NCBI GenBank assembly: GCA_963674595.2
Contig: CAXXFV010000023.1
Span: forward strand, 320,001-384,000
Direction: 5' to 3'
Length of the DNA stretch: 64,000 bases
Origin: a bacterium
GTDB lineage: Bacteria > Zhuqueibacterota > Zhuqueibacteria > Residuimicrobiales > Krinioviventaceae
Position numbers and translations under genes: made by a program. The notes beneath the pieces were generated by a model. That model made no database searches and was not told the origin of the DNA. It was given only the letters and a program-made list of their open reading frames with translations. Positions 3,015 to 18,276 of this stretch are shown here, piece by piece (positions within the stretch are counted from its first letter, which is position 1; each line of letters opens with the position of its first letter).

Positions 3015-4499
3015 ATGAAAGAATATTTGAATAACCGAAATGTAACTCTTTTCTTTATTGCCATTCTATTGGTTTCATCCTTTTTGATCCCGGTGACCAA
3101 TACAATTTCTCTTGATGAGGCAGATTATATTGCCTCTGCTGACAAGGGATTTGTTGCAAACTATTTTGATTTAGATGGCACCCGGGATTTACGTCACTTT
3201 CACGGACCAATGGTTTCATACCTTATTCAACTGGGCTTTATGTTTGGTGAAAGAGAAATGTATGTATTACATACATTGAACAAGATAATAGGACTGCTTT
3301 CAATATTTTTTGTTTTTCTCGCCTGTCTGTCCCTGTTCGGTAAAGATGGAAAATGGATCGGTTTGGTGAGTGGTTTTTTGTTACTGACCATGCCTGTATA
3401 TATTCATACTCATATCAGTGACTCTGCTACAATGCACCCCATAACAAATTTGTTCAGTACACTTTGTTTCCTTTTTTTATCGTTGGCTGTCATTCGTAAG
3501 GAAAAATTATATCTGTACGCTTTTAGCGCCGCCCTGGGACTGATGTTTGTTTCTATGGAATATGGTTTTATTTTTTTGTGTATAGCCGGTCTTACGCTTT
3601 TTATTGTCCCAAATCCATTTTTTAGTCTCTCATTCAAATCGATTAAAATTTCAAAATCATTGTGGATATCTGCGCTGCTTTTAATAGCTGTTATTGCTGT
3701 TTTTTGGAATGCCGGAATATTTAAATTGAATCTTTTAAAAAATTTTGTTTATTATTTGAGATATGGTGCGCACGGTCACCCGATATATTTTCGCGGGGAA
3801 TTAACATATCATGCGCCCTGGTGGGCATTTATTTACTGGTATTGGAAAATAAATGCAATTTTTCTTGTCTTTTCCATTATTAATCTGGTCGGGTTTATTT
3901 TCCTGATAATTCAAAAAAAGTTTCCAAAAGAATATGCAATATTGGGAGTTTTTTTCGTTGTTTTGGTTGCTGCTTTATTTCGACAGCATATTATGTCGCC
4001 ACGATATAGTTTGTATATATTGCCTTATCTTTGTCTGATAAATGGTATTGTATTCGTATATTGGATGAAAAGAGTGCCAAAATATCTGAAATTAGTTTTT
4101 GGAATTATTTTTACGGCTGTTCTTCTTTACGGTCCTTTAAATTATACTCCTTTTGCCGGGGATTATGAACCCTTTAAAGATGTGGCCCAATATATTCAAA
4201 AACATACTGAAAAAGATGATAAAATATTATCAGATTATAGTTCTGTTTTAAAATTTTATTTACATGACTTTGATAATATTTTTAACTATAAAACAGGATA
4301 TGCTGATTCTTTATTAGTTAAAGATATTCAAAATTACAAATACCGGTTTGTCGTTCTTACCGTAAACCGGTTGAGACGTTGGCCTGACGATGCTGCAATA
4401 TTATTTATTCGTCAGAATTATCGTAATAATTTTACAGTTTATTATAATGACGAACCAAGAATTTTTATTTACGAGTCTGAAAATAACAATCAAGATTGA
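3015..4499 (+). CDS. Polytopic membrane glycosyltransferase, GT-C fold (ArnT/PMT, GT39/GT83-like)
   Basis: About 11-13 hydrophobic segments, DE motif (LDEADY) after the first TM, HGP, and PRY near the end of the membrane part; adjacent to a polyprenol-phosphate GT2. Confidence 0.7.
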   Translation: MKEYLNNRNVTLFFIAILLVSSFLIPVTNTISLDEADYIASADKGFVANYFDLDGTRDLRHFHGPMVSYLIQLGFMFGEREMYVLHTLNKIIGLLSIFFVFLACLSLFGKDGKWIGLVSGFLLLTMPVYIHTHISDSATMHPITNLFSTLCFLFLSLAVIRKEKLYLYAFSAALGLMFVSMEYGFIFLCIAGLTLFIVPNPFFSLSFKSIKISKSLWISALLLIAVIAVFWNAGIFKLNLLKNFVYYLRYGAHGHPIYFRGELTYHAPWWAFIYWYWKINAIFLVFSIINLVGFIFLIIQKKFPKEYAILGVFFVVLVAALFRQHIMSPRYSLYILPYLCLINGIVFVYWMKRVPKYLKLVFGIIFTAVLLYGPLNYTPFAGDYEPFKDVAQYIQKHTEKDDKILSDYSSVLKFYLHDFDNIFNYKTGYADSLLVKDIQNYKYRFVVLTVNRLRRWPDDAAILFIRQNYRNNFTVYYNDEPRIFIYESENNNQD

Positions 4500-4517
4500 T
4501 GTCTTAAAAGTGGAGAT

Positions 4518-5351
4518 ATGCCGGAGAATATGGAAACAAATCTAGATTTAAATTATGAAATAAATAAATATAGTCTAAACTCTTTTTTCTATGATAAAGC
4601 ACTTGTTGAACTGGTAAACAAGAATTTATTTTCCATTGTTATACCTGTTTTTAATGAAGAAAAAACAATTTTGGAATTGTTGGAACGTGTTCAAAATATC
4701 AGTATCCCTAAAGAAATTATAATCATTGATGATTTTTCATCCGATGGTACCCGTCCTGTTCTTGAAAAATATTGTTCAGAGCATGATAATGTAAAACTTT
4801 ATTTACATGAATATAATCAAGGCAAGGGGGCCGCACTTCGAACCGGCTTTGAAAAAGTAACGGGCGATGTTGTTATCATACAAGATGCAGACCTGGAATA
4901 TCATCCCGGTGAATATTATCGGTTGATATATCCTATTTTAATCGGCGAGGCTGATGTAGTTTATGGTTCCCGATTTTTGGGAGAGGCCCATCGTGTATTG
5001 TTTTTTTGGCATTATGTGGCAAATAAAATGCTGACGACTTTTTCCAATATGATGACAAATCTTAATTTAACTGACATGGAAACCTGTTATAAGGTTTTTC
5101 GCAGACAGGTATTGGAAAATTTTGTCATTAAATCCAACCGGTTTGGATTTGAGCCGGAATTTACAGCCAAAATTGCAAAACGTAAATGGCGCATCTTTGA
5201 AATGGGTATTAATTATTACGGTCGGGATTATAGCCAGGGTAAAAAAATCGGCTGGAAAGATGCTGTAAGCGCTTTTTTTTCAGATTGTAAGGTTTCGTTT
5301 TTTCGACTAATAAAATCAAATACTTGTGTTTCTAAAATAAAATTTGAATAA
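4518..5351 (+). CDS. GT2 glycosyltransferase, polyprenol-phosphate mannose synthase-like (C-terminus probably altered by a T8 tract; natural stop likely 5308-5310)
   Basis: [57 protein letters not shown]. Confidence 0.9.
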
Positions 5352-5357
5352 AATAAC

Positions 5358-5386
5358 TTGCAAAATTTCTGCAATATCTCTATATT
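5358..5386 (+). promoter_or_regulatory. Sigma70-type promoter of the cobalamin operon
   Basis: TTGCAA (5358-5363), 17 bp spacer, TATATT (5381-5386), about 20 nt upstream of the riboswitch. Confidence 0.7.
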
Positions 5387-5406
5387 TAGCCAGTAAAATT
5401 TTATAA

Positions 5407-5571
5407 CTTTTGGTCCCTCGTCAGGGATAATAGGGAAGACGGTGCAAGTCCGTCGCAGCCCCGCTACTGTAATGAGCTACGAAAGTCGCACTTGTTAAGA
5501 CAAGCCACTGGAGTTTACCGGGAAGGCGCGATTGTAGGTTTGATGCTCAAAGCCAGGAGACCTGCCAAAAG
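5407..5571 (+). ncRNA. Cobalamin (adenosylcobalamin) riboswitch
   Basis: AATAGGGAAGACGGTGCAAGTCCGTCGCAGCCCCGCTACTGTAA ... GCCACTG ... GGGAAGGC ... B12 box AGCCAGGAGACCTGCC; closing stem CTTTTGGT/GCCAAAAG; lies upstream of cobO and a BtuB-like receptor. Confidence 0.96.
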
Positions 5572-5630
5572 CAATTTTGTTAAGCAACCTTCGCGGGTGA
5601 GGTAGGCTTTGTCTCTTTTATGCAAATCCC

Positions 5631-5661
5631 CCCAACTTGTCGTGACTGGTTGGGTTTTTTT
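5631..5661 (+). terminator. Intrinsic terminator of the riboswitch expression platform
   Basis: CCCAAC...GTTGGG stem followed by T7, between the aptamer and the cobO start. Confidence 0.75.
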
Positions 5662-5708
5662 ATGCCCTCCCCCTCCGCGTATAATCTTTATTTTATTATT
5701 AAAAATTT

Positions 5709-6242
5709 ATGCAATCTCAAAATTACTCCGGATACATTCATATCTATACCGGTAATGGTAAAGGTAAAACCACCGCTGCCTTGGGTTTGGCCCTGCGAGC
5801 TGCTGGTGCCGGCATGAGGATATATATTGGTCAATTCCTCAAGGGACAGTCCTATGCTGAACTGGAAGGCGTTAAAATGTTCGGCACACAACTGTGCATA
5901 GAACAATTTGGACAAACCTCTTTTTATAAATTGGGTAATGGTGATTTAAACGCAAAATCCTGTGCTCAAAAGGGTTTTCAACGTGTACAAAAAATCATTC
6001 AAAACAATGAATATGATATTGTCATTCTCGACGAAATCAATGTAGCCGTTTCTCTGGATTTAATCCGGCAGGACCAGGTGTTGGATTTGATGAATTTAAA
6101 ACCGGCCATGATGGAACTGATTATGACCGGACGAGGTGCCAGTCAGGCAATTATAGAGCAGGCTGATTTGGTCACTGAAATGAGGGATGTAAAACACTAT
6201 TATCATCAAGGTGTTATGGCGCGCAAAGGAATTGAACATTAA
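5709..6242 (+). CDS. cobO: Cob(I)yrinic acid a,c-diamide adenosyltransferase (CobO/BtuR/CobA type)
   Basis: IYTGNGKGKTTAALGLALRAAGAG, QFLKG, ILDEIN, MTGRGA, ADLVTEM, KHYY, ARKGIE. Confidence 0.96.
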   Translation: MQSQNYSGYIHIYTGNGKGKTTAALGLALRAAGAGMRIYIGQFLKGQSYAELEGVKMFGTQLCIEQFGQTSFYKLGNGDLNAKSCAQKGFQRVQKIIQNNEYDIVILDEINVAVSLDLIRQDQVLDLMNLKPAMMELIMTGRGASQAIIEQADLVTEMRDVKHYYHQGVMARKGIEH

Positions 6243-6243
6243 A

Positions 6244-8448
6244 ATGAAAAATGTTTTAAATATATTTTTAATTTTTGTTCTGATCCCGTTTATGGTTACA
6301 AGGGGACAGTCTGTCGAAAAAGTTGTTGGCTATGTAATTGATGAAAGCAATGGAATGCCGCTAATCGGTGCCAATGTTGTTGTTCTTGGTACGTCTCAGG
6401 GTGCATCAACGGATATAAACGGTCGTTTCCAAATTTCTAATTTATATAATGGTGAATATTCCATTATTGCGCAATATGTCGGCTATGAATCAATTGTCAA
6501 GTCCGTACAAATCCAGATGGATCGACCGGTGAACATCATGTTCCGGTTAAAGCCGACAGTTGTAAAAGTTGATGATATAGAAATAGTAGCTGAAAGAGCA
6601 GAGCAAACATCTGATCGCATTATTGAAGTAATCCGCCATGAGGATATCCGCCGACTTGGTGCAAAAGATGTCGGTGATGTTTTAAAAACGCTGAATGCTG
6701 TGGAAATTGCAGAAACCGGGGGTTTGGGTAGTAAAAAAACTATTTCTATTCGCGGTAGCAATGCCAACCAGGTGCTGGTTTTACTCGATGATGTCCCCTT
6801 GAATGATCAGATGAGTGGTGAGGTGGATTTGTCTCAAATTCCTGTTGATATGATTGAAAGTATTAAAGTCCACAAGGGCGGCAGTTCTCCGGCATTCGGT
6901 AACGGGGCCATTGCCGGTGTTGTGCAAATTGAAACACGCAAAGTTTTTAAAAAATATATATCCCTTCAGATGCAAACAGGGTCTTTTCAATACCGACAGT
7001 TTAATCCGAGCTTTTCCGGTGTTTACAAGAATTTTGGCTATTATACATCGTTTGGTTATACGGAAAACAAGGGAGATTTTGAATTTTCCTATGAACACGG
7101 AAATGAAACAATTAACGCTGTTCAACAAAATGCAGATTTTATTTCCAGAAATTATTTTTCACGATTTTATTACGATTTAAAAGACAATCGGTTAACTGCC
7201 CATCTGCAATTGTTTAATTCTGAAAGGGGCCTGCCGGGACAAAAACGGCGCTGGTCCATTTGTGCCCGGTCTCATAACGAAAGAAACTTGTATGGTTTTG
7301 ACTTTAATCGAAATAAAAAAGTTTATGCTGTTACTATGAGTTATCGCATTACGGATGAGGAAACCGCTAACGTAAATTTACCTCCGGATACGTTGTCCGC
7401 TGCTTACAAGGGAAACAAGTATAACTATGTTTATAACGTTGAAAATAAACTTTTTATAGCCAAGGTGAAATATTTTCCAAAAAACTGGATTTATCTGACC
7501 ATAGGATTTGATAAAAGCCATTTATCTTATAATGATGAGGATTTTCTTGACTTTATTTCCCCAATTGGTCATGCAAAAGACAAATCCCATTCTTTTTCCA
7601 GCGACCACGAGATTAAGTTTAAACAACCAAAGTTGTTGATGCAGGGACAAATCCATTCCTATATACGTTATGATGAATTTCGTCTCGAAAGTAGAAAAAC
7701 AAGACGTTTTGAACATCAAACGAGTCCGGGTATCGGCGCCAATTTACAATTCGGAAATAAATACAAAGTTTTTTTAAGAGGCAATTTTTCCCGATCATTT
7801 CGGATTCCTACATTTGCAGATTTGTTTTATCAGGACGGGCGTGTAATCGGAAAACATGATTTGCTTCCGGAGAAGGGTAAAAACAAGGAATTTAATTGCG
7901 GGTTTGATATTCAATGGTTTGGAGATTGGACCAGTGAATATGCTGTCTTTCAAAATAAAATTGATGATTTGATCTATTGGACAAAGCAGGCCCATGATAC
8001 CTTTACGCCGGCCAACACCGACGCACAAATTGATGGTTATGAATACAATCTCTCTTACACAAGCCCAAACGAATGGGTTATAATAGATGCCGGTTATACG
8101 CATTTGGAACCACTCAACAAATCAAAGAATATTACACTTTACGACAAAATCATTACGTTTCGGCCGCAGGATACATTCAAGGGTAAAATAGAATGGCATA
8201 TAAAATCATCTTATTTGATTTTACAATATCGTCATATCGGCAAACGCTTTACAACTATAACCAATACTTATGCAGCGCCGGAATATGAGGTTTTTGATCT
8301 TACATCCGGTTTAACAAAAAATTTTCACCATTTCAGTTCAACATGCAGTTTTGCTGTTCTTAATGTTTTTGATGAAGAGTATGAGCTTGTTCAAAATATG
8401 TCCATTCCGGGGCGTCAATGGCGAGTCGGATTAAATTTTAAATTTTAA
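6244..8448 (+). CDS. TonB-dependent receptor, probable cobalamin transporter (BtuB-like), with N-terminal carboxypeptidase-regulatory-like domain
   Basis: Likely start ATG 6244 (MKNVLNIF); plug motifs ISIRGSNANQVLVLLD and AIAGVVQI; C-terminal PGRQWRVGLNFKF; under a B12 riboswitch. Confidence 0.88.
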   Translation: MKNVLNIFLIFVLIPFMVTRGQSVEKVVGYVIDESNGMPLIGANVVVLGTSQGASTDINGRFQISNLYNGEYSIIAQYVGYESIVKSVQIQMDRPVNIMFRLKPTVVKVDDIEIVAERAEQTSDRIIEVIRHEDIRRLGAKDVGDVLKTLNAVEIAETGGLGSKKTISIRGSNANQVLVLLDDVPLNDQMSGEVDLSQIPVDMIESIKVHKGGSSPAFGNGAIAGVVQIETRKVFKKYISLQMQTGSFQYRQFNPSFSGVYKNFGYYTSFGYTENKGDFEFSYEHGNETINAVQQNADFISRNYFSRFYYDLKDNRLTAHLQLFNSERGLPGQKRRWSICARSHNERNLYGFDFNRNKKVYAVTMSYRITDEETANVNLPPDTLSAAYKGNKYNYVYNVENKLFIAKVKYFPKNWIYLTIGFDKSHLSYNDEDFLDFISPIGHAKDKSHSFSSDHEIKFKQPKLLMQGQIHSYIRYDEFRLESRKTRRFEHQTSPGIGANLQFGNKYKVFLRGNFSRSFRIPTFADLFYQDGRVIGKHDLLPEKGKNKEFNCGFDIQWFGDWTSEYAVFQNKIDDLIYWTKQAHDTFTPANTDAQIDGYEYNLSYTSPNEWVIIDAGYTHLEPLNKSKNITLYDKIITFRPQDTFKGKIEWHIKSSYLILQYRHIGKRFTTITNTYAAPEYEVFDLTSGLTKNFHHFSSTCSFAVLNVFDEEYELVQNMSIPGRQWRVGLNFKF

Positions 8449-8476
8449 AAAAGTAACATAAAACCAAGGAGATACT

Positions 8477-10417
8477 ATGCGGAAAAAGTTTGTTACACTG
8501 TTTACCTTAATTGTTCTTGTTATTTCAAGCGCTTTTACTGTTTGGGCTGAAACTCCCCGAACTATGTATGTGATGAGCAGCGCTTCCCGTTCATTATCAA
8601 AAATGAACATGGAAACCGGCGGCGTTTTACAGGATGTTGTTTTGTTGGGTGAAACCAGCAACCAGGTTTTGGTCAATAATAATAAAATTTATGTTGTCAA
8701 TTCCGGTACGGATGACATTATGATCATTGATGCGGAAAACGACCAGGCTGTGCAGCAAACCATTGCTTTGGACATTGGCAGCAATCCCTGGGCTATGGAT
8801 TTTATCAGCAATGATATGGCTTATGTTAGCAATTTTTTAGATAATTCCGTATCTGTTATTGATTTTTCGACAGGACAGGCAACAAAAAAAATAACTGTCG
8901 GAACAGCACCAGAAGGTGTTTTTGTAATGGCAGATGCGGCTTTGGGAACCAAAGCGTTTATAACAAATACCGGTTATGCCGGTTGGAACCAACCCTACGC
9001 CGGTTCGTCTGTTTCTATTATTAATGTTGCAAACGATTCTGTAACACATACAATTGATATGCCGGTTAATCCTCAGGATATAGCAATTGACAGTTGGGGA
9101 CGTTTACATGTTATGTGTACCGGTGATTACGGCGAAAACACGGGAAAAATAGCCATCCTCAGTATGTATACCGGTGATAACTGGAATGAACCTGGTGTTG
9201 TTGCCACGGTAGATATTGGCGGTCAACCCGGAGATATTGTTGTAACCCCTGACGGAAAGGGATATTGTGTTGCCTGGGGTGATGGTACAAATGGATATTT
9301 GTACGTTTATGATGCCCTGGCCGATACAGTTATCCATGGTGCTGATGACCCAATTTTAATCGGACCTAATGTATCCAATCTTGTTTATGATAACAAAGAA
9401 AATTGTCTTTGGATCCCCTATATGGCGGAATGGGGAGGCGACAGCTATATCCAAAAATTTGATCTGGAAAGTGAATCTGTTGTATGGCAATCGCCATTGG
9501 TTTGTGCAGGCGCTCAGGCTCTTGCTATTCTGGAACCAATTTTGGACACAGATGCATGGGCAGACGGTGTTGTTTCATTTACAGCAGGAGCCGAGTGGAA
9601 CCATTTTGGTGAAAACTTTTTTCCACAAAATGTTCTCGGGCCACCGGACCCAAGCCCGAATATCGGACCATACTCTCCTTCTGCAAAGGCCCAAGAATTG
9701 TTGTCCTTGGGAAACGGTGGGGAAATCGTCCTTGAATTCTCAAATAATGTGATTGAAAACGGAGATGGTGCTGATTTTACTATATTTGAAAATCCGTTTA
9801 TTTCGTACTTTGATGGTTCTGTAAATTGTGAAACAGGTATTGTCTCTGTCAGTCAGGATGGTGAAAACTGGGTACAGTTCCCCTATGACGCTGAAACCTT
9901 GATCGGACTGGCTGGTGTTACACCAACCGGTGATACGCAGAATCCAACTGACCCGGCTGTTTCCGGCGGTGATCAGTTTGATTTGGCTGATGTTGGTTTG
10001 GCATGGGCACGATTCGTTAAAATTACAGACGCCGGTGATCTGGTCGTTGATAGTGGTGATTTTGATCTGGATGCGGTTGTGGCAATAAATTCTGCTAAAG
10101 AACCGACCTCAGTTGAAGATAATGAACATAATGTGCCGGAACAGTTTACCTTGGAGCAAAATTATCCGAATCCTTTTAATGGACAAACCTCAATCGAGTT
10201 TTTATTAAACAAAAACAATCATGTTTCTGTTGAAATTTATAACACAAACGGACAGCTTGTAAAAACGCTCATGAACAAATCCGTACAAGCCGGAGCTCAT
10301 CGCGTAGTATGGGATGGACGTGATAATCAAAACCTTGACGTTGTCAGCGGATTGTATCTCGCTGTTCTGAAAACGCCGGTTAAACAAAAGATGATTAAAA
10401 TGAGTTTTATTAAATAG
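8477..10417 (+). CDS. Secreted multidomain putative cobalamin-binding protein: YncE/BtuG-like beta-propeller + BtuH-like domain + T9SS/FlgD-Ig-like C-terminal domain
   Basis: Sec signal (VWA|E); propeller repeats (IYVVNSG, GSNPW, AYVSNF, VGTAPEG, NPQDI); second domain VLGPP...LSLGNGGEIVLEF...NGDGADFTIFENPF...VSVSQDG...FDLDAV; C-terminal QNYPNPFN...WDG...SGLY. Last gene of the B12 operon. Confidence 0.7.
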   Translation: MRKKFVTLFTLIVLVISSAFTVWAETPRTMYVMSSASRSLSKMNMETGGVLQDVVLLGETSNQVLVNNNKIYVVNSGTDDIMIIDAENDQAVQQTIALDIGSNPWAMDFISNDMAYVSNFLDNSVSVIDFSTGQATKKITVGTAPEGVFVMADAALGTKAFITNTGYAGWNQPYAGSSVSIINVANDSVTHTIDMPVNPQDIAIDSWGRLHVMCTGDYGENTGKIAILSMYTGDNWNEPGVVATVDIGGQPGDIVVTPDGKGYCVAWGDGTNGYLYVYDALADTVIHGADDPILIGPNVSNLVYDNKENCLWIPYMAEWGGDSYIQKFDLESESVVWQSPLVCAGAQALAILEPILDTDAWADGVVSFTAGAEWNHFGENFFPQNVLGPPDPSPNIGPYSPSAKAQELLSLGNGGEIVLEFSNNVIENGDGADFTIFENPFISYFDGSVNCETGIVSVSQDGENWVQFPYDAETLIGLAGVTPTGDTQNPTDPAVSGGDQFDLADVGLAWARFVKITDAGDLVVDSGDFDLDAVVAINSAKEPTSVEDNEHNVPEQFTLEQNYPNPFNGQTSIEFLLNKNNHVSVEIYNTNGQLVKTLMNKSVQAGAHRVVWDGRDNQNLDVVSGLYLAVLKTPVKQKMIKMSFIK

Positions 10418-10429
10418 TTTCTTCTCGTC

Positions 10430-10467
10430 AAAGGCAAGTTCGTTTTGGGTCGGCTTGCCTTTTTTTT
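10430..10467 (+). terminator. Intrinsic terminator of the cobalamin operon
   Basis: AAAGGCAAGT / GCTTGCCTTT stem followed by a T tract just after the stop at 10417. Confidence 0.75.
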
Positions 10468-10506
10468 CCCCCCCTGTATTCGATTTCAGGTTTTAACTTT
10501 TAGTTG

Positions 10507-10546
10507 AAAAAAATCCCATCTGCCAAAACAGCAGATGGGATTTTTT
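10507..10546 (-). terminator. Intrinsic (bidirectional-type) terminator of the minus-strand TBDR
   Basis: AAAAAATCCCATCTGC-loop-GCAGATGGGATTTTTT perfect inverted repeat just past the receptor stop at 10554. Confidence 0.85.
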
Positions 10547-10553
10547 ATATGAA

Positions 10554-12896
10554 CTAGAATAAAGTTTGTAAACCAAAGTAAAGTGTCCTTGGGCGAATAG
10601 GACCATAGGTATAAGCCGGGTCCCGGTCCGGACCTTTATCCAGATCGTCCTGATAAGCATTTGTGATATTTCGAACACCAAAATTTAATTTTGTTTCCAT
10701 TCCATGGTTTATCGGTAATTTTATGGTTGCCCCAAGATCGATTTGGAAAAAGCTGTCGCTTTCAATCAGCAATAACTCTGGATCATCCTGGCCTTCTATA
10801 GCCACTTCGTGGGGTAGGTCTGCTTTGCCGATATAATTTCCTCCGATAAACACACTAAAACGGTCAACAGGATCAACCGTAAAACGAATATTTCCAGTTA
10901 AATCCGGTGTACGTAAGAAATTGGTTGTGCCAAAATCTTCATTCGGTGTGTCATACTCGCTCTTTTTATAAGTAAAACCGGCACGGGTCTCCAGTATGGG
11001 GACCGGACGAATTCCCAAATCAAGTTCAACGCCTTTAATTTGAGCGCCATCACTATTGATGCGTTCCCAGTATTCAATAACGCCTTGTTTGGAAACAAAT
11101 GTTTCTGTAAATCCATCATCAAGGGTTGTGTTGAAACCGGTCATTGTAATCATAACCGGAATATGATTGTATATGCCTTTAAATTCAAGTCCGGCAGAAT
11201 AGGAATAACTTTTTTCTTCTTTCAAGTCGTCGGAATTTCTGATGATTCGCTGGTCGCCTTCAATACCGCATAAATGTAAATCTTCATCATAGGTTTGTGG
11301 CGGTTTAAAACCTGTTGTAAAGGCAGCTCTTGCTGTAAATCCTTTACCGATATCGAATTTTCCGTTGACTCTCGGACTCCATATCCAGTTTTTTAACTCA
11401 GAATGTTTGTCGGCTCTTACACCAATAACAAACTCTATTTGCTCATGGCTTCCAAAATGAATATTGTCTTGGAGAAAGATTCCTGTGTTTTTATATGTTT
11501 CGTCAATGTAATACGTTGTTTCTGCTGCAGTTTTATCTTCGAGCTTGTCAAGTGTGTGCTGAAAACCCAGAGTCATCAGTTGACCGGCAAGTCGATAATT
11601 TAACTGGCCTCCGAAAAAATGAAGAGGATTGTTGGTCCTTCCATAAAAAGCCAAAGCATCAAGCTGGTCCTGGTCAGTGTCTCCCCCTAGACCACCAAAA
11701 TACGACTTGCGTTTTTCAATGGAAAAAGAGTAATAGAGTCTGTAATCAAGCAATGAGGAAGGACGATGGTTCCAGCGAATGCTCCCGCCAGACCGCCAGT
11801 GTTCAAGCCATTCAGCAATTTCTGCTTCATGTACAGGTAGATGAAAGTTGTTACCACCACGACGTTCTTCGTGAATACGGTGGAAGGAGGTTACAAATTC
11901 ACCTGTTTTAATAGGTTGATAATACCATTTGAACCCTATGGACTCATTTAACAGTTCACCCAATTCGCTATAGCCGTCTCCATTATGATCATAGGGATTT
12001 CGTTTGCGAAAAGAGCCGAACACATAAGCCCCGGATGTACCTTTTTCATTGACTGTTTCTGCTACAGCACCAACACGCTGGTCCGGTAAACCATTTGATG
12101 AATTGTTCAAATATTTAATTCGTACCTGGTTCATAATGGGTTTACGGGTGATCATATTAATAACGCCGGCAACCGCACCGGCACCGTATAATGAAGAACC
12201 ACCACCTTTAACGATTTCAATTTGGTCAACCATCTCTTCCGGAAAATGTTCCAGACCGTATACACTGGCAAGACTGCTGACAAGCGGATCACCATCAATA
12301 AGAATTTGTGAATACTTGCCGTCCATACCTAAAATACGTACCTGAGAAAAGTTACAGTTTGAACAATTGTTCTCAACACGAACACCCGTCTGAAATTCGA
12401 GTGCTTCAGCCAGGTTACTGGCTTGTTTTTGCTCTATAATATGCCTTGGAATAACTTCGGTGCGTACCGGCATATCTTCTACCAGGTGCGGGGTTGCTGT
12501 ACCGGTTACAACCAGGGCGCCCATTTCAAGGGCTGTCTGCTCCAGCTCAAAATCGACAACAAGTGATTCATTTGCTTTCAGGACAACAGTTTGATGGACC
12601 GTTTGATATCCTATCATTGAAGCTGTTAAATGAATTTTCCCGGATGGTACGGATGTAATAAGATATGCACCTTTGTCATTAGCTGCTGCACCATTTGTTG
12701 TATGATGGATTATAATATTTGCACCGGGTAATGGTTCTTTTGTGTCGGCGTCATATACCGTACCGCTGATTTTTCCTTTAAGATGATTTGCATTGTTACG
12801 CCCTTGATGTCTGCCATGCCTTTGTCCTTCTGCAAATGCAACGCTGCTTATTACAAGTGATAAAAGTAGTATAATATATAAAAATAGTTTTTTCAT
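10554..12896 (-). CDS. TonB-dependent receptor with NCxNC plug motif, probable transition-metal (Ni/Co/Zn) uptake
   Basis: Signal peptide (AFA|E), His-containing N-terminus, carboxypeptidase-regulatory-like domain, plug ENNCSNCNFSQVRILG...GGGSSLYGAGAVAGVIN, loop YDEDLHLCG, C-terminal Phe. The substrate is inferred. Confidence 0.88.
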   Translation of the reverse strand: MKKLFLYIILLLSLVISSVAFAEGQRHGRHQGRNNANHLKGKISGTVYDADTKEPLPGANIIIHHTTNGAAANDKGAYLITSVPSGKIHLTASMIGYQTVHQTVVLKANESLVVDFELEQTALEMGALVVTGTATPHLVEDMPVRTEVIPRHIIEQKQASNLAEALEFQTGVRVENNCSNCNFSQVRILGMDGKYSQILIDGDPLVSSLASVYGLEHFPEEMVDQIEIVKGGGSSLYGAGAVAGVINMITRKPIMNQVRIKYLNNSSNGLPDQRVGAVAETVNEKGTSGAYVFGSFRKRNPYDHNGDGYSELGELLNESIGFKWYYQPIKTGEFVTSFHRIHEERRGGNNFHLPVHEAEIAEWLEHWRSGGSIRWNHRPSSLLDYRLYYSFSIEKRKSYFGGLGGDTDQDQLDALAFYGRTNNPLHFFGGQLNYRLAGQLMTLGFQHTLDKLEDKTAAETTYYIDETYKNTGIFLQDNIHFGSHEQIEFVIGVRADKHSELKNWIWSPRVNGKFDIGKGFTARAAFTTGFKPPQTYDEDLHLCGIEGDQRIIRNSDDLKEEKSYSYSAGLEFKGIYNHIPVMITMTGFNTTLDDGFTETFVSKQGVIEYWERINSDGAQIKGVELDLGIRPVPILETRAGFTYKKSEYDTPNEDFGTTNFLRTPDLTGNIRFTVDPVDRFSVFIGGNYIGKADLPHEVAIEGQDDPELLLIESDSFFQIDLGATIKLPINHGMETKLNFGVRNITNAYQDDLDKGPDRDPAYTYGPIRPRTLYFGLQTLF

Positions 12897-12906
12897 TATT
12901 TATGTT

Positions 12907-12963
12907 CCTCTGGTTTAAATCCTTTTCTTACGTTAATTAATACAAAAAGTGGCTCACCAGAGG
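12907..12963 (-). promoter_or_regulatory. SD-sequestering hairpin (translational attenuator) of the TBDR
   Basis: Perfect 8-bp inverted repeat CCTCTGGT (12907-12914) / ACCAGAGG (12956-12963). On the mRNA, the last Pro codon of RAPP plus the next codons pair with the receptor SD (GAGGA, 12906-12910). An inner CUUUUU/GAAAAG stem extends it. Confidence 0.65.
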
Positions 12964-13308
12964 GGGCGCGCGGGTGTGGTACCTGAAGCATGGATTTATG
13001 CTCAAGTAGTAACATTTATACTTGAAAATTGAAAAGAATAAAATAATAAATAACAGGACTTTAATGCCAATTAAAAGATGAGACATTATATTGGTAATAA
13101 ATTCCCAATAATAAAGTTTGAATTCGGAATGCGTATGTGCTGGTGTTGAATTGTTTGCACCATCCTTTTGAAATGGATGAGCGTGAAAAACAAACTGGTT
13201 ATATATGTTTTTATGAAGATGTCCATTGACAGCATAATTTGACAACAGGGCCAATAACTGTATTAATAGAACAATTGAGAGAAATGATTTTATAAAAATT
13301 GATCTCAT
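12937..13308 (-). CDS. His-rich two-TM leader protein ending in RAPP (putative metal-sensing ribosome-arrest uORF)
   Basis: Hydrophobic N-terminus, NGHLH...HAHPF...HTH, second TM, C-terminal HTRAPPLVSHFLY; stop 40 nt upstream of the TBDR start. Confidence 0.8.
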   Translation of the reverse strand: MRSIFIKSFLSIVLLIQLLALLSNYAVNGHLHKNIYNQFVFHAHPFQKDGANNSTPAHTHSEFKLYYWEFITNIMSHLLIGIKVLLFIILFFSIFKYKCYYLSINPCFRYHTRAPPLVSHFLY

Positions 13309-13448
13309 AATTGTACGATTTTTATGATCAGTAAAAAGTTAGCTGGAATATCTATAGCAATAGACTAAAAATATAGAATATTGTTTTTAATGAACATACC
13401 AAGGCTATTTAAGCTGGTAAGAGCATTTATTTATTTTAAGTTGAAATG

Positions 13449-13826
13449 TTAAAAGGAAAAGAATAAAGGGGGACCGCGTAGGCTAAAACATAAAATATAA
13501 GAAGAAGGTGTTAAAGTACGTTGTTTAGCCGAGTATGAACGGTTGATTGTGAGAAAAATAATAAAAAGAATAAATAAAACAATAAAAGCCAAAAGATTTG
13601 TGATAAACTGATAAAAAAGAAACTGGGCTTGTGTATGCGTATGTTTGTTTTGGAAAGGTATTGTTGATCTGTCTTCATGTGAAGAAAACGGATGAGCGTG
13701 AAAAATAACAATACCATTTTCATTTTTGTGAAAATGGCCATTCATAACATTATTGTAACACAACAATAATGTCACGAAAATCATAAATAAAGCTGTTAAT
13801 TTTTTTATGTAATTAAATTGTACCAT
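13449..13826 (-). CDS. Second, paralogous His-rich two-TM leader protein ending in RGPP
   Basis: Same architecture: NGHFH...HAHPF...HTH, TM, LRGPPLFFSF; SD AAAGGA upstream of the ATG. Confidence 0.8.
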   Translation of the reverse strand: MVQFNYIKKLTALFMIFVTLLLCYNNVMNGHFHKNENGIVIFHAHPFSSHEDRSTIPFQNKHTHTQAQFLFYQFITNLLAFIVLFILFIIFLTINRSYSAKQRTLTPSSYILCFSLRGPPLFFSF

Positions 13827-13851
13827 ATTTCCTTTCTATAACGTGATTAGA

Positions 13852-13880
13852 AAGATAAAAATAAACAGAGTGATTGTCAA
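13852..13880 (-). promoter_or_regulatory. Sigma70-type promoter for the uORF-uORF-TBDR unit
   Basis: Minus strand TTGACA (13880-13875), 17 bp spacer, TATCTT (13857-13852), 25 nt upstream of the first uORF start. Confidence 0.7.
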
Positions 13881-14146
13881 TATTTATCTTTCAAGCTCTT
13901 TTGTTTATGTTTAGGGCATTCGTTAAAGTTCAAAAAGAATTTAATGATTTTGTGTTGTGTTTTTTTATGTCTGAATGGGCATTTATCATTTAATAATTAT
14001 AGACATAACATGACTAATTTGTAATATAGTATTTACAATTGCCGGTAGTTCATTAAAAATAGTGATTTAAATGTATATATCGTAATTTATTGTTTTAATT
14101 GTACTTTTCCTTTAAACATTTTTTTTGAAAAAAAATTGGAAAAGAC

Positions 14147-14175
14147 TTGACTTTATTGTCAATCATTTGTATAAT
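14147..14175 (+). promoter_or_regulatory. Sigma70-type promoter of the regulator / glycan locus
   Basis: TTGACT (14147-14152), 17 bp spacer, TATAAT (14170-14175). Confidence 0.8.
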
Positions 14176-14188
14176 TGTAATAACAATT
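14173..14188. promoter_or_regulatory. Putative GntR/AraR-type operator
   Basis: Palindrome AATTGT-AATA-ACAATT overlapping the -10/+1 region; same length and TTGT-N4-ACAA core as the Bacillus AraR operator. Confidence 0.65.
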
Positions 14189-14206
14189 AAAGCGAATGGA
14201 AAGAAT

Positions 14207-15313
14207 ATGAATATTGATAAAAACAGTCCTGTTCCTCAATATTATCAATTAGAGACATGGTTGGAAGAGCAAATTGATCAGGGTATTTTCAGGGAAGATG
14301 AAAAGATACCAACAGAGGAAGAGCTGGCACGTATGACTGGTCTTTCCCGTCCCACCATTAGGCATGCCATTCAGAATTTAGTAAATAAGGGATATTTGTC
14401 CAGAAGGCGCCGGTTAGGTACTTTTGTCAATAAGAAATTTTTAACGTCATCTACGCAAAACATATTAGGAATTCTGGTAAATTTTTATAAAAGTGGATAC
14501 GCCACGGAATTGATCCGGGGAGCTGGAGACGCCTCGGCAAAGGAGAATTATAGCCTTGTTTTATGTAATACCGATGATTCCTATGTTATGGCAGATATGC
14601 ATATAGATAGATTGTTAGAGCAAGGAATTCGGGGCGTTATTTTTGTTCCTACAGCCGCTTCAGATGAAAAGAATATATTACTTGTCCAGAAATTGCTAAG
14701 AAAAGGTGTCAAAGTTATAATAGCAGACCGTCACATTCCCGGTGTCGATATAGATAATGTCATTACGGACAATTTCTGGGGAGCCTATAATATAACCAAC
14801 TATTTAATTTCAAAGGGGCACCACAAGATTGCAATACCAATAACCACCCTGTTTAATACGGCCCGTGAGCGATTGGAAGGTTATAAACAAGCGTTAAAGG
14901 ATGCCAATATATCTATTGATCCTTCATTGATATTTTTAAATAACGAACGTTTTACGGATACATCATATTATGAATATGCGACACTTGTATTTAATACAAG
15001 GAACAAGTTTTCATCTATTTTTGCCAGCGATGACAAAATGGCCCATATTTTTTTCTCGGTTGCACGGCAAATGAATATCCGAATACCGGAGGATATTTCT
15101 CTTGTTGGGTATGATGATCTGCCCTGTTCATCGCCGGAATTTTTCGACTTGACCACCGTGCATCAACCTATTTATGAAATGGGTCAAAAGAGTACAGAGA
15201 TTTTATTAAGTCGTATAAATGGAAATAATGAAAAGACGCAGCAACTTACACTAAAATCATATTTAGCCGAAAGGCGTTCTGTTTTACCTCAAAAATATTA
15301 TAAACGTAAATAA
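14207..15313 (+). CDS. AraR-type transcriptional regulator (GntR winged HTH fused to LacI-type sugar-binding domain)
   Basis: PVPQYYQL...KIPTEEEL...SRPTIRHAIQNLVNKG...GTFV, then DNFWGAY, RLEGY, IPEDISLVGYDD, LTTVHQP. Start moved to ATG 14207 because the track's TTG at 14147 is the -35 box. Confidence 0.93.
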   Translation: MNIDKNSPVPQYYQLETWLEEQIDQGIFREDEKIPTEEELARMTGLSRPTIRHAIQNLVNKGYLSRRRRLGTFVNKKFLTSSTQNILGILVNFYKSGYATELIRGAGDASAKENYSLVLCNTDDSYVMADMHIDRLLEQGIRGVIFVPTAASDEKNILLVQKLLRKGVKVIIADRHIPGVDIDNVITDNFWGAYNITNYLISKGHHKIAIPITTLFNTARERLEGYKQALKDANISIDPSLIFLNNERFTDTSYYEYATLVFNTRNKFSSIFASDDKMAHIFFSVARQMNIRIPEDISLVGYDDLPCSSPEFFDLTTVHQPIYEMGQKSTEILLSRINGNNEKTQQLTLKSYLAERRSVLPQKYYKRK

Positions 15314-15597
15314 GTATTTAATATAATATTTTTATAACCTAATCATTGAACTGTTGTTTTTTTGTTAAAAGACAGATTTAAAAATGATTTTCAGATCAAA
15401 CACCTATAGCATTCCTTTTTTTAAATTATTATTTAAGATATTTATATCACAATGATATTTCTTTATGTCGGTGTGGCACTAGAAATTTAATTGGCTAATA
15501 AAAGTTAGAATAGCAATAACACGTTTTTTTTGACAAAAGATTTTATTAACACATATAAGATATTTAACTAATTGATTGATTTGGTAAAGGATTTGTT

Positions 15598-18276
15598 ATG
15601 CGAAAAATCAAGGTATTTTTATTATTTATTCTTTTTTTGGTATTGTTTTCAGAATTGCACGCAGGGGTTACCGGAAAAATTGCGGGTCGAATCGTAGACC
15701 GTGAAACAGGGGAGCCGATTCCCGGAACAAATATTGTTTTAGAGGGAACGTCGCTTGGTGCTTCTGCTGATTTGGAGGGATATTATTTTATAATCAATAT
15801 TCCGCCTGGCCGTTACAATGTAGTATTTCGGTGTATGGGTTATACCACACAAAAGTTTGAAGAGATTAGAGTGAATGTAGATGTTACCAATACGATAAAT
15901 GTCAAGCTTGAGCCTACGATTATAGATGGTCAGGAAGTGACCATAGTAGCAGAGAGGACACTTATTCAAAAGGATTTAACCTCTACGTCCGCCCGTGTTT
16001 CAAGTGATGACATCGAGTTGTTGCCATTGGAAAGTGTCGGAGAGGTTGTAAATCTTCAGGCTGGTGTTGTAGACGGCCATTTTAGGGGCGGACGACTCGG
16101 TGAAGTAACGTATTTGATAGATGGTGTTTCAGTAAACGATGCTTATGATGGCGCTCAAATGATTAACCTGGAGCCTAACGCAATTGCAGAAGTTGAGGTT
16201 ATAAGTGGAACGTTTAATGCGGAATATGGGCAGGCAATGTCCGGTGTCGTTAATATTGTTTCCAAAGAGCCGGAACAAAGAATAAACGGTCAGTTTTCTG
16301 CATATACAGGAGCCTATCTAAGTAATCGTAAGACACCATTTGCCACAAAAAGTGGAGATGCTACGAAAAGGGATGATTTTGGCCAGGAAGAGCTTTCCTA
16401 TTTTGATATTGCTGGTTTGGGTGATGTTTATGATGTTCAGGGGAATTTGACCGGGCCGCTTTATAAGGACAAGTTGTTCTTTTTTAGTTCAGTACGATAT
16501 AACAAAGATGACGGTTACTATTATGGGCGGAGGTTGTTTAGTCCCGGAGATTCATCATCTTTTATGGGAGATCGTGAAGATTGGGAGATTGAGGCGACCG
16601 GAGATGGTGAATTGGTTCCAATGAACTGGAAAAAGGCGCTGAGTTTTACCGGTAAGCTTATAGCCAAGCCTTTTTCAGGCCACAAGATTACGTATAATTT
16701 TATATATGATGATGATGAAAATCAGAATTTCACACACAAGTACAAATACAATCCGGATGGCCGTCCAACCAACTATGGTAAGAGTTTTTCACACATGTTT
16801 CACTATGATTATGTAATAAATCAAAATGGTTTTATAAATTTCAAATTTGCGAATTTTAAAAAGGATTATAAAACATACCTGTATGAAAATCCTTATGACC
16901 TGAGATATGTTCCGGATACCCGGTTTAGTATTGGTTCGGGACCAACTTTTTATATGGCGGGCACAAATATGAGTCATTCCTACCGTTCTTCCCTTAGCAC
17001 GGTGGCGAAAGCAGATTTGACCTATCAGGTAGACCGGTATAATCAGATTAAGGTGGGTGTACAGGCCCAGGCGCATGAAATAAACGTACACAGTTATTCG
17101 ATTAGGTTGGACCGTCAAACAAACTGGCTGCCACGACCGATAGAGAAAGAGAGTCCTAATTACGTACAATATACAAAAAAGCCTGTAGAATTTAGCGCCT
17201 ATATTCAGGATCGTATTGAATGGTCTTATTTCATTATGAATGTTGGCTTACGTTATGACAGATTTGAGCCGAGAAGTGTCATACCTACGGATTTAAATGA
17301 TCCTTCCAACAGTGAAAAGGTCGATGCCAAGGTAAAAAGCCAGTTTAGTCCCCGTTTTGGTATAGCTGTACCCATTACTGAGCATAGTGTGCTGCACCTT
17401 TCCTATGGTTTGTTTTTTCAGATGCCTTCTTTAAACGCTCTTTATTTAAATCCGGACTTTAGAATTCCTGTTGCTTCCTACTCACAGATCGGTAATAGTG
17501 ATCTGCAACCACAAAAAACGGCAACATACGAAATAGGCCTGCAGCACGAGGTTACCAAAGATGTCGCGCTGGAATTGACGACTTATTATAAGGACATTAG
17601 AAATCTTTTGGGAATGGAATCATATACTATGTATGAGACATTTACCCAATATGCCAGATATGTAAACAGGGATTATGGTCAGGTGTTTGGTTTTACTGTT
17701 TCATTGGAACAACGAAGTAGTGATTTTTTAACCACCTCTGTTGATTATACCTATATGCTGGCAGAAGGAAATGCTTCCGATCCCAAGGATGTGTATTTAA
17801 AAAGTGTAACAAGTCCTCCAACAGAAGTTACAAAGCAGCTTATTCCATTGGACTGGGACCGAACACACAGTTTAAACATAACAGCAACGGCCCATGACCG
17901 AGATCGCTGGAATTTGGGACTGATTGGAACATTTGCTTCGGGTGTTCCCTATACGGCTGAAAAGAATGACAATTATTTTGGTCCGGCAAATAGCGAGCGG
18001 AAACCATTTTTTGTTAGTTTTGATTTAAATTTTTCGGTATCGTTTAAACTTGCCAAGATGAAGGCAACGTTTTTCTCCAATATGTATAATATATTTGATA
18101 TAGAAAATGATATACAAATATATACGGATAGCGGTAATGCAAGTTATACAAGAAGCATGAGCACAAAAACAGATGATATGATAACCGGAATTAATACAAT
18201 CAGGGATTATTATTATCGTCAGGATTACCGAAGCGCTCCGAGAAAAGTTGTTTTAGGTATACAGGTTGAATTTTAA
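15598..18276 (+). CDS. TonB-dependent receptor (non-SusC type) heading the glycan locus
   Basis: Signal peptide, AGVTGKIAG carboxypeptidase-regulatory-like domain, HFRGGR...YLIDG, SGTFNAEYGQAMSGVVN plug, FSPRFG, LDWDRTH, C-terminal GIQVEF. Confidence 0.92.
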   Translation: MRKIKVFLLFILFLVLFSELHAGVTGKIAGRIVDRETGEPIPGTNIVLEGTSLGASADLEGYYFIINIPPGRYNVVFRCMGYTTQKFEEIRVNVDVTNTINVKLEPTIIDGQEVTIVAERTLIQKDLTSTSARVSSDDIELLPLESVGEVVNLQAGVVDGHFRGGRLGEVTYLIDGVSVNDAYDGAQMINLEPNAIAEVEVISGTFNAEYGQAMSGVVNIVSKEPEQRINGQFSAYTGAYLSNRKTPFATKSGDATKRDDFGQEELSYFDIAGLGDVYDVQGNLTGPLYKDKLFFFSSVRYNKDDGYYYGRRLFSPGDSSSFMGDREDWEIEATGDGELVPMNWKKALSFTGKLIAKPFSGHKITYNFIYDDDENQNFTHKYKYNPDGRPTNYGKSFSHMFHYDYVINQNGFINFKFANFKKDYKTYLYENPYDLRYVPDTRFSIGSGPTFYMAGTNMSHSYRSSLSTVAKADLTYQVDRYNQIKVGVQAQAHEINVHSYSIRLDRQTNWLPRPIEKESPNYVQYTKKPVEFSAYIQDRIEWSYFIMNVGLRYDRFEPRSVIPTDLNDPSNSEKVDAKVKSQFSPRFGIAVPITEHSVLHLSYGLFFQMPSLNALYLNPDFRIPVASYSQIGNSDLQPQKTATYEIGLQHEVTKDVALELTTYYKDIRNLLGMESYTMYETFTQYARYVNRDYGQVFGFTVSLEQRSSDFLTTSVDYTYMLAEGNASDPKDVYLKSVTSPPTEVTKQLIPLDWDRTHSLNITATAHDRDRWNLGLIGTFASGVPYTAEKNDNYFGPANSERKPFFVSFDLNFSVSFKLAKMKATFFSNMYNIFDIENDIQIYTDSGNASYTRSMSTKTDDMITGINTIRDYYYRQDYRSAPRKVVLGIQVEF

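Follow-up and report, generated by a model that had tools for sequence, protein, structure and literature searches.

To our knowledge, sensing of a metal by a nascent chain is known only from two DUF2946 proteins, CruR and CutF, both of which sense copper. Here we analyze a 64,000-nucleotide (nt) stretch of the genome of a Zhuqueibacterota bacterium (contig CAXXFV010000023.1, positions 320,001 to 384,000; hereafter the window, numbered from its own first letter), in which two tandem small open reading frames (ORFs), ORF A and ORF B, precede a TonB-dependent receptor gene on the minus strand and end in the motifs RGPP and RAPP. We propose as plausible that these ORFs belong to a large unannotated family of histidine-based arrest-peptide sensors whose arrest codons double as an anti-Shine–Dalgarno (anti-SD) sequence. 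CruR of Bordetella pertussis (Bp2923, DUF2946) is encoded upstream of the TonB-dependent transporter gene bfrG; expression of the downstream gene depends on its stall, which metal relieves, and the system acts through Rho-dependent termination across a GC-rich gap of 162 nt (PMC9426467). The CruR stall places two proline codons in the ribosomal P and A sites (PMC12992588). CutF provides a precedent for masking of a Shine–Dalgarno (SD) sequence (PMC9973294), and in SecM, MifM and VemP the arrest is undone by force that pulls on the nascent chain (PMC7897499). According to the same source, prediction yielded no SD-masking hairpin for the arrest peptides ApdA, ApdP and ApcA (PMC7897499). A 2025 EMBO Journal survey describes RAPP and RGPP as the most depleted tetrapeptides of bacterial proteomes, which stall with many upstream sequences, resist EF-P, lie C-terminally in small membrane or exported proteins, and mark upstream ORFs (uORFs) that are enriched upstream of TonB receptors in Gram-negative bacteria (PMC12992588).

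Like CruR, the window locus places a small uORF for an exported or membrane protein immediately before a TonB-dependent receptor gene, with a C-terminal RAPP near the stop codon and a metal-ligand motif at a fixed distance from the RAPP. The gene row runs from ORF A through ORF B to the receptor gene and contains the following features (aa, amino acids):

13449..13826, minus strand: ORF A, 125 aa, promoter-proximal paralogue of the candidate sensor family, C-terminal end LRGPPLFFSF
13467..13478, minus strand: R-G-P-P codons CGC GGU CCC CCU of ORF A, residues 117-120 of 125, putative arrest site
12937..13308, minus strand: ORF B, 123 aa, receptor-proximal candidate sensor, stop codon at 12939-12937
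13129..13221, minus strand: predicted periplasmic metal-binding loop of ORF B, residues 30-60, with the histidines conserved in the alignment
12961..12972, minus strand: R-A-P-P codons CGC GCG CCC CCU of ORF B, residues 113-116 of 123
10554..12896, minus strand: TonB-dependent receptor, 780 aa, with CarbopepD_reg_2, Plug and beta-barrel domains and a signal peptide

ORF B is predicted to consist of a first transmembrane (TM) helix, a beta-hairpin and loop with three HxH pairs, a second TM helix and the tail TRAPPLVSHFLY. A gap of 40 nt, rich in A and U and with few C residues, separates it from the receptor gene, whose SD AGAGGA (12911-12906) lies 9 nt before the AUG (12896-12894); an intrinsic terminator was looked for between the two genes and none was found. 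Every NCBIfam match to the receptor fell far below cut-off, so that no substrate can be assigned from it. Across the genome (6.6 Mb, 38.8% GC), the two motifs are avoided: the ORFs of at least 300 aa, which together comprise 1,436,708 residues, contain neither RAPP nor RGPP but have AAPP 4 times and AGPP 7 times, and both motifs are confined to the C-terminal ends of five small ORFs. This avoidance matches the published picture (PMC12992588), and the marks of an arrest peptide coincide here in a C-terminal R[AG]PP, exclusion of the motif from the proteome, and a predicted N-terminal TM segment.

As paralogues with 31% identity (E 2e-16), ORF A and ORF B represent a family that existing annotation does not capture. 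Pfam offers no family for ORF B and none above cut-off for ORF A, NCBIfam offers none for either, a word-indexed protein search with ORF B gave no match at E ≤ 0.01, and a related-locus search with ORF B alone recovered one distant locus; the family is visible only through profile searches of genomes and of a representative library. By profile search it is present in 28 of 61 related genomes at a loose E ≤ 1 and, at E ≤ 1e-6, in 32 of 125 genomes of the class and 46 of 167 genomes of the phylum. Among 1.84 billion representatives of 50%-identity clusters, the profile matched 2,769 at E ≤ 1e-3 and 1,362 at E ≤ 1e-10, and the best 150 of these include 148 with R[AG]PP (88 RAPP, 60 RGPP), 143 with the triple pattern HxH...HxH...HxH and three with CxxC. 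R[AG]PP ranks as the most conserved element of the family: in 45 of the 46 distinct members that we extracted from 71 fetched loci, it is found at residue 110-124, separated from the stop codon by 2-15 residues. A 45-sequence alignment with approximately 25% identity reveals a short list of invariant columns, comprising only H30, H32, H42, H44, H60, R113, P115 and P116, with H58 nearly invariant and with TM helices and tail that vary freely. The last invariant histidine and the arginine of R[AG]PP are 51-56 residues apart in 45 of 45 members. An AlphaFold2 model built on the ORF B alignment (mean predicted local distance difference test score 79.9) contains helices at residues 2-28 and 62-104, strands at 29-33 and 39-43, and a disordered tail, with the first two HxH pairs placed on the predicted 29-33/39-43 beta-hairpin; from the Lys/Arg residues at both ends the protein reads as N-in/C-in, which would make the histidine loop periplasmic.

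This family shares a design with the known copper sensors and differs from them in its parts. The preliminary description of this DNA had drawn a parallel to CruR as a DUF2946 protein with CXXC and RAPP; the RAPP is indeed present, but ORF B has no DUF2946 match and lacks a CXXC. None of the 45 members matches Pfam DUF2946 at E ≤ 0.01, no other Pfam family recurs among them, and in place of CxxC, which is absent from ORF A and ORF B, the invariant ligands are histidines. CruR has a CXXC and a signal peptide where the ORF B family has three HxH pairs and two TM helices, and the distance from ligand to RAPP is 45 residues in CruR against 51-56 here, an analogous and not an identical spacing. CutF of Rhodobacter capsulatus, the DUF2946 protein encoded with cutO, has a CxxxC ligand and a PPP-type motif, in contrast to the histidine ligands and RGPP/RAPP motifs of ORF A and ORF B. 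With ApdA, ApdP and the 'TonB-related' RAPP/RGPP uORFs of the 2025 survey (PMC12992588), the family shares the core motif, its C-terminal placement, a localization signal and the association with downstream TonB receptors. The passages of that survey considered here describe no histidine-type family and no ZnuA-type operons, although its supplements, which lie beyond the scope of this comparison, may list members. A literature search combining RAPP or RGPP with zinc, ZnuA or histidine-rich returned no paper with either motif among the best matches listed. Members of the family are probably nascent-chain sensors of a divalent metal that work in the manner of CruR and CutF outside the DUF2946 family.

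Several further observations concern the family as a whole. The nearest named ESM Atlas cluster, DUF6769 (score 0.93), was considered as its identity and set aside, since hmmscan gave it no support; the ESM Atlas neighbors of ORF B are 'hypothetical protein' clusters, most commonly from Bacteroidota. Bacteroidota make little use of SD sequences, so that a family common in this phylum could not have SD masking as its output there. One member, L016 (G009:C5:1793775-1794092; L numbers denote our loci), keeps the histidine motifs, lacks R[AG]PP and ends in a different-looking tail, and may be a frameshifted, broken or decaying copy. Where two sensors stand in tandem, the promoter-proximal copy carries RGPP and the receptor-proximal copy RAPP in seven of seven complete tandem loci (the window, L005, L034, L039, L052, L063 and L100); in a further tandem, L077, the second copy has lost the motif.

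The RAPP codons of ORF B are linked to the SD of the receptor gene through a predicted two-part hairpin in the minus-strand mRNA:

12956..12963, minus strand: 5′ arm of the outer stem, CCUCUGGU, made of the second Pro codon followed by the codons for Leu and Val
12944..12949, minus strand: 5′ arm of the inner stem, CUUUUU, which pairs with GAAAAG and includes one U-G pair
12922..12927, minus strand: 3′ arm of the inner stem, GAAAAG, from the predicted fold
12907..12914, minus strand: 3′ arm of the outer stem, ACCAGAGG, which contains the receptor SD AGAGGA

The outer arms CCUCUGGU (12963-12956) and ACCAGAGG (12914-12907) are exactly complementary, and the ORF B stop codon falls within the apical loop between the inner-stem arms. 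Every coordinate and sequence statement in the preliminary description proved correct, including the RAPP codons, the 8-nt complementarity, the SD 9 nt before the AUG and the inner stem. In the stretch that it named for folding, 12880-12990, the hairpin is both the minimum free energy (MFE) structure and the centroid at -20.7 kcal/mol. A 67-nt core (12966-12900) folds at -18.4 kcal/mol with a z-score of -3.88 and with 1 of 200 shuffles as stable, a score flattered by the choice of its ends after the hairpin had been seen. When ten codons around RAPP were recoded synonymously, 27 of 1,000 samples formed a duplex with the SD region that was at least as good, and when the stall window of this locus was swapped for those of eight other loci, one of the eight paired with the SD as well. 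The hairpin is real and, for this single locus, somewhat better than chance. Use of SD sequences in this genome is supported by the CCUCC in the 16S tail and by an SD-like 4-mer upstream of 1,213 of 2,707 long ORFs, compared to 195 in a control window. Four near-identical strains differ from the window at 3 to 16 positions each over 12700-13900 and at none within 12900-12972, too few differences for an inference of constraint. An Rfam scan of 4000-16000 placed no family on the hairpin and gave a cobalamin riboswitch as its only real match.

To model the consequence of arrest, we assigned CCC (12966-12964) to the P site and CCU (12963-12961) to the A site, by analogy to the toeprint of CruR (PMC12992588). 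A footprint of -12 to +15 around this P site spans 12978-12951 and covers the whole 5′ arm of the outer stem, and in a folding model that keeps the footprint single-stranded the mean unpaired probability of AGAGGA rises from 0.17 in the free RNA to 0.80, which agrees with the earlier suggestion that a ribosome on the 5′ arm frees the SD. Between a ribosome at RAPP and the SD there remain approximately 35 nt, enough space for a 30S subunit. The receptor AUG is itself predicted to sit in a weak A/U hairpin with the first codons (12870-12905, minus strand; unpaired probability 0.11, with or without the stall constraint), which may be a folding artefact of A/U-rich sequence.

We slightly favor, over the alternatives taken together, a SecM/CutF-style translational attenuator driven by a CruR-like arrest that metal releases. 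In such a mechanism, ORF B, and probably also ORF A, would act as a metal sensor during its own translation. The nascent ORF B would insert with its N terminus in the cytoplasm and its loop of three HxH pairs facing the periplasm, and its ribosome would stall at the R-A-P-P codons, Pro115 occupying the P site and Pro116 the A site. Parked in this way, the ribosome would cover the 5′ arm (12963-12956), leaving the SD free and the receptor translated. Binding of metal by the periplasmic loop would cause folding that pulls on the nascent chain and releases the arrest, upon which translation would terminate seven codons later, the hairpin would re-form and receptor synthesis would drop, a switch that would probably keep uptake on while the metal is scarce. 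Sequence and computation show the ORFs, the motif with its conservation and its avoidance in the proteome, the hairpin and its geometry relative to a stall footprint, and the tie to metal-uptake operons. We infer that the ribosome stalls, that metal releases and does not induce the stall, which metal this is, and that the output is SD masking and not Rho. The proposal places the locus beside SecM-secA, MifM-yidC2 and VemP-secDF, in which arrest at the C terminus of an upstream ORF parks the ribosome on one arm of an SD-sequestering helix (PMC7897499); those peptides differ in sensing Sec or YidC activity and regulating the machinery that pulls them, with neither a metal nor a histidine-ligand loop. 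It also departs from CutF, whose anti-SD lies in an intergenic stem-loop, as here the arrest codons themselves form the anti-SD arm. In the main text of the 2025 survey (PMC12992588), the terms stem-loop, secondary structure and Shine-Dalgarno have no occurrences.

The position of the hairpin also allows for plain translational coupling, in which any ribosome finishing ORF B melts the structure and the receptor is simply co-expressed with ORF B. The small membrane protein would then have a function of its own, for example as an accessory in metal handling, and RAPP would merely slow its synthesis for membrane insertion. Both stems have their 5′ arms within the coding sequence of ORF B, where each passing ribosome would melt them, the predicted two-helix fold is confident, and the family is conserved as a protein, TM segments included. 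The invariant residues are nonetheless only the histidine ligands and R-PP, which fits a sensor and an arrest module better than a structural partner, and RAPP and RGPP are otherwise excluded from the proteome. The fixed 51-56 residue distance from histidine to arrest site further mirrors the functional CXXC-RAPP spacing of CruR (PMC9426467), and we regard simple coupling as improbable.

The genes that follow members of the family point to what the sensors may control. We scanned 16 downstream genes and found nine TonB receptors of the same domain type, one porin and six unannotated proteins of approximately 430-470 aa, the last followed in six of six loci by ZnuA (PF01297) and two ABC-3 permeases. 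The unannotated protein before ZnuA has a signal peptide and an aromatic last residue, features compatible with an outer-membrane channel, and its 441-aa form in this genome is a probable outer-membrane protein. Starting from the receptor, 22 of 30 metagenome loci with an orthologue of the window receptor (identity mostly 59-72%, with three given apart at 51%, 61% and 27%) contain a family member upstream of it; DtxR-like regulators adjoin two of these loci and Fur adjoins one, and other neighbors vary. Because the downstream genes are TonB receptors, a porin and operons of a probable outer-membrane protein with ZnuA and ABC-3 components, the family in the examined loci precedes what gene content indicates is the outer-membrane entry step of metal-uptake routes. 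The sensed metal would be divalent, and the all-histidine ligands together with the ZnuA link make Zn2+ our guess, with Mn2+ or Fe2+ possible. A third family member in this genome, L105 (G000:C16:140413-140787), heads an operon of a 441-aa protein, ZnuA and two ABC-3 permeases with no adjoining ATPase gene, and the same operon follows the sensor in five of five other genomes examined.

This gene content bears on the direction of the response. A reversed, CutF-like logic, in which periplasmic metal induces or prolongs the stall and the receptor is made when its ligand is present, has a precedent in the copper-induced stalling of CutF that opens an SD-masking stem-loop (PMC9973294; bioRxiv 10.1101/2025.02.05.636593). 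The CutF stall is metal-induced and controls a detoxifying oxidase (PMC9973294), whereas ORF B precedes an uptake receptor, and the genes that the family would regulate are uptake components (TonB receptors, porin-like outer-membrane proteins and ZnuA/ABC-3 importers) of a kind that scarcity normally induces. In CruR, the known controller of a receptor, metal releases the stall (PMC9426467), and a metal-induced stall at this locus strikes us as quite improbable.

We examined how widely stall site and SD pair across the family by defining a stall window from -12 to +16 of the P site and an SD window from -20 to +3 of the downstream start. The 45 motif-bearing members yielded 35 loci after five with no downstream ORF in the fetched DNA and five with a doubtful downstream start were dropped. 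In 13 of these 35, pairing strength with the SD region puts the stall window in the top 5% of all 28-nt windows across uORF and spacer, and in 10 of 35 the probability that the SD pairs with the stall window exceeds 0.5, across gaps of 35-449 nt. Duplex energies reach -17 to -22 kcal/mol in L034, L042, L039, L050, L040 and L070 and -16.7 kcal/mol in L008; these strong duplexes often join Leu-Arg-Ala-Pro-Pro codons to GGAGGAGC and the spacer up to the AUG, and in full-length folds of the loci concerned the stall-SD helix closes the whole intergenic region. Cognate pairs of stall and SD windows average -10.95 kcal/mol compared to -9.43 kcal/mol for non-cognate pairs, a mean that 2 of 20,000 permutations reach, and synonymous recoding gives p ≤ 0.05 in 7 of 35 loci and p ≤ 0.01 in two (Fisher combined p 3.0e-4). 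A second set of 18 sensors upstream of receptor orthologues includes four with a pairing probability above 0.5 and one with a synonymous p ≤ 0.05. Stem arms occupy different registers in different loci, and a check of the two arms for conservation found the helix in the 10 of 35 and 4 of 18 loci given above and a single two-sided change: in L091, whose receptor is 60% identical, CCUCUGUU/AACAGAGG replaces CCUCUGGU/ACCAGAGG with pairing retained.

A separate uORF of the same genome, the fourth with RAPP, provides a case that by sequence is independent of the family. Located outside the window (G000:C23:421746-422063; L104:1247-1564), it encodes 105 aa laid out as a TM segment, a His/Cys loop (HNH...H..C.AH), a second TM segment and the tail SRAPPFQLMKIA, has no match to the family profile, and ends 40 nt upstream of another TonB receptor gene. 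Here CCCUUUCAAUU, comprising the second Pro codon and following bases, is predicted to pair with AAUUGAAAGGG, which holds the receptor SD, in an 11-bp stem that is the MFE structure (-17.6 kcal/mol, z-score -2.77, 0 of 200 shuffles as stable). The same architecture is thus found with another sequence and another sensor family.

Against these observations stand several that weaken the case for SD masking. The 111-nt fold of 12880-12990, though the hairpin is its optimum, is unexceptional in stability (z-score -1.42, 22 of 200 shuffles as stable). In a swap control, the stall window of each of 40 loci (11 of the 18, and those 29 of the 35 whose downstream ORF has at least 200 aa and whose SD energy is -5 or better) was replaced by those of eight other loci and refolded. 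Swapped windows paired with the SD nearly as often as the cognate ones, with a mean probability of 0.27 and 26% above 0.5 compared to an observed mean of 0.365 and 14 of 40 loci above 0.5, although all eight swap columns fell below the observed count, at 7-12 loci above 0.5. Most stall-SD pairing is therefore intrinsic, a by-product of Arg-Ala/Gly-Pro-Pro codons (CGN-GCN/GGN-CCN-CCN) that are C-rich like the 16S CCUCC tail and meet a purine-rich SD, and selection adds a modest locus-specific extension. Approximately two thirds of homologous loci have no such pairing, so that SD masking cannot be the only output of the family, and kinship among loci (L042/L050, L017/L019) inflates the family statistics. 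At the window locus itself, the ORF B AUG has no SD in 13309-13330 (minus strand), where the best anti-SD duplex is +0.6 kcal/mol. ORF A is preceded by AAAGGA as SD, its spacer to ORF B holds no significant structure (z-score -0.45), and its stall site does not pair with the ORF B start region (probability 0.01). The complete translational attenuator first described for this locus accordingly holds in part: the motif is conserved and avoided elsewhere and the design recurs, L104 included, while the pairing is missing from about two thirds of homologous loci and, where present, owes much to the CCN-CCN codons as such.

Some of these results would also fit a CruR-type output, in which the stalled ribosome blocks Rho or maintains coupling of translation to transcription, release leads to Rho termination before the receptor gene, and the hairpin is incidental. 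CruR is the only characterized RAPP uORF upstream of a TonB receptor and is Rho-based (PMC9426467), so that the preliminary description, correct in what it stated about CruR, cited a precedent that does not act by SD masking. Rho is encoded in this genome, and many homologous loci combine long gaps of 100-450 nt with no stall-SD pairing. Where CruR has its long GC-rich gap, the window locus has 40 nt of A/U-rich, C-poor sequence with a predicted SD-masking hairpin, a sequence that would make a poor loading site for Rho. The significant advantage of cognate over non-cognate pairs, a codon choice that favors pairing, and a stem in L104 that extends well past the Pro codons likewise speak against an incidental hairpin. 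We consider Rho as the output of the window locus unlikely, though it deserves more weight than coupling or a metal-induced stall; it could act jointly with SD masking, and Rho polarity may well operate in the long-gap loci.

A broader reading extends the favored attenuator to the family: a very large and previously undescribed group of periplasmic metal sensors would act only during their own synthesis. Capture of a divalent metal, probably Zn2+, by the loop of three HxH pairs outside the membrane would exert a pull that releases the RAPP/RGPP arrest 51-56 residues downstream, and the arrest codons (GCN CCN CCN) would double as the anti-SD arm, one short element thus stalling the ribosome and masking the next gene. 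On this reading the likeness of the Pro-Pro codons to the 16S CCUCC tail would pre-adapt every RAPP arrest peptide as a translational switch. We advance it tentatively and think it rather more apt to fail than to hold, while giving it more credence than any of the three alternatives above. The locus points to a separate histidine-based family of thousands of sequence clusters that has no annotation and that, in a mostly uncultured lineage, heads outer-membrane uptake genes and ZnuA-type importers. If confirmed, the mechanism would bring a further metal, and uptake across the outer membrane in general, under the known reach of arrest peptides, and would offer a compact, testable cassette of sensor, arrest motif, 8-bp stem and SD. 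It would also suggest a simple reason for the repeated recruitment of RAPP-type motifs as regulators, their codons being natural anti-SD sequences, and, if the arrest codons do serve as the anti-SD arm, would supply the output mechanism missing for ApdA and ApdP.

The cobalamin riboswitch found by Rfam belongs to a neighboring plus-strand region that is convergent with the studied receptor gene and looks like an ordinary B12 uptake locus:

5394-5583, plus strand: cobalamin riboswitch (Rfam match, 116 bits, E 3.8e-29), upstream of a BtuB-like TonB receptor gene
6211-8448, plus strand: BtuB-like TonB receptor, downstream of the riboswitch
8477-10417, plus strand: beta-propeller protein with a type IX secretion sorting tail, following the BtuB-like receptor

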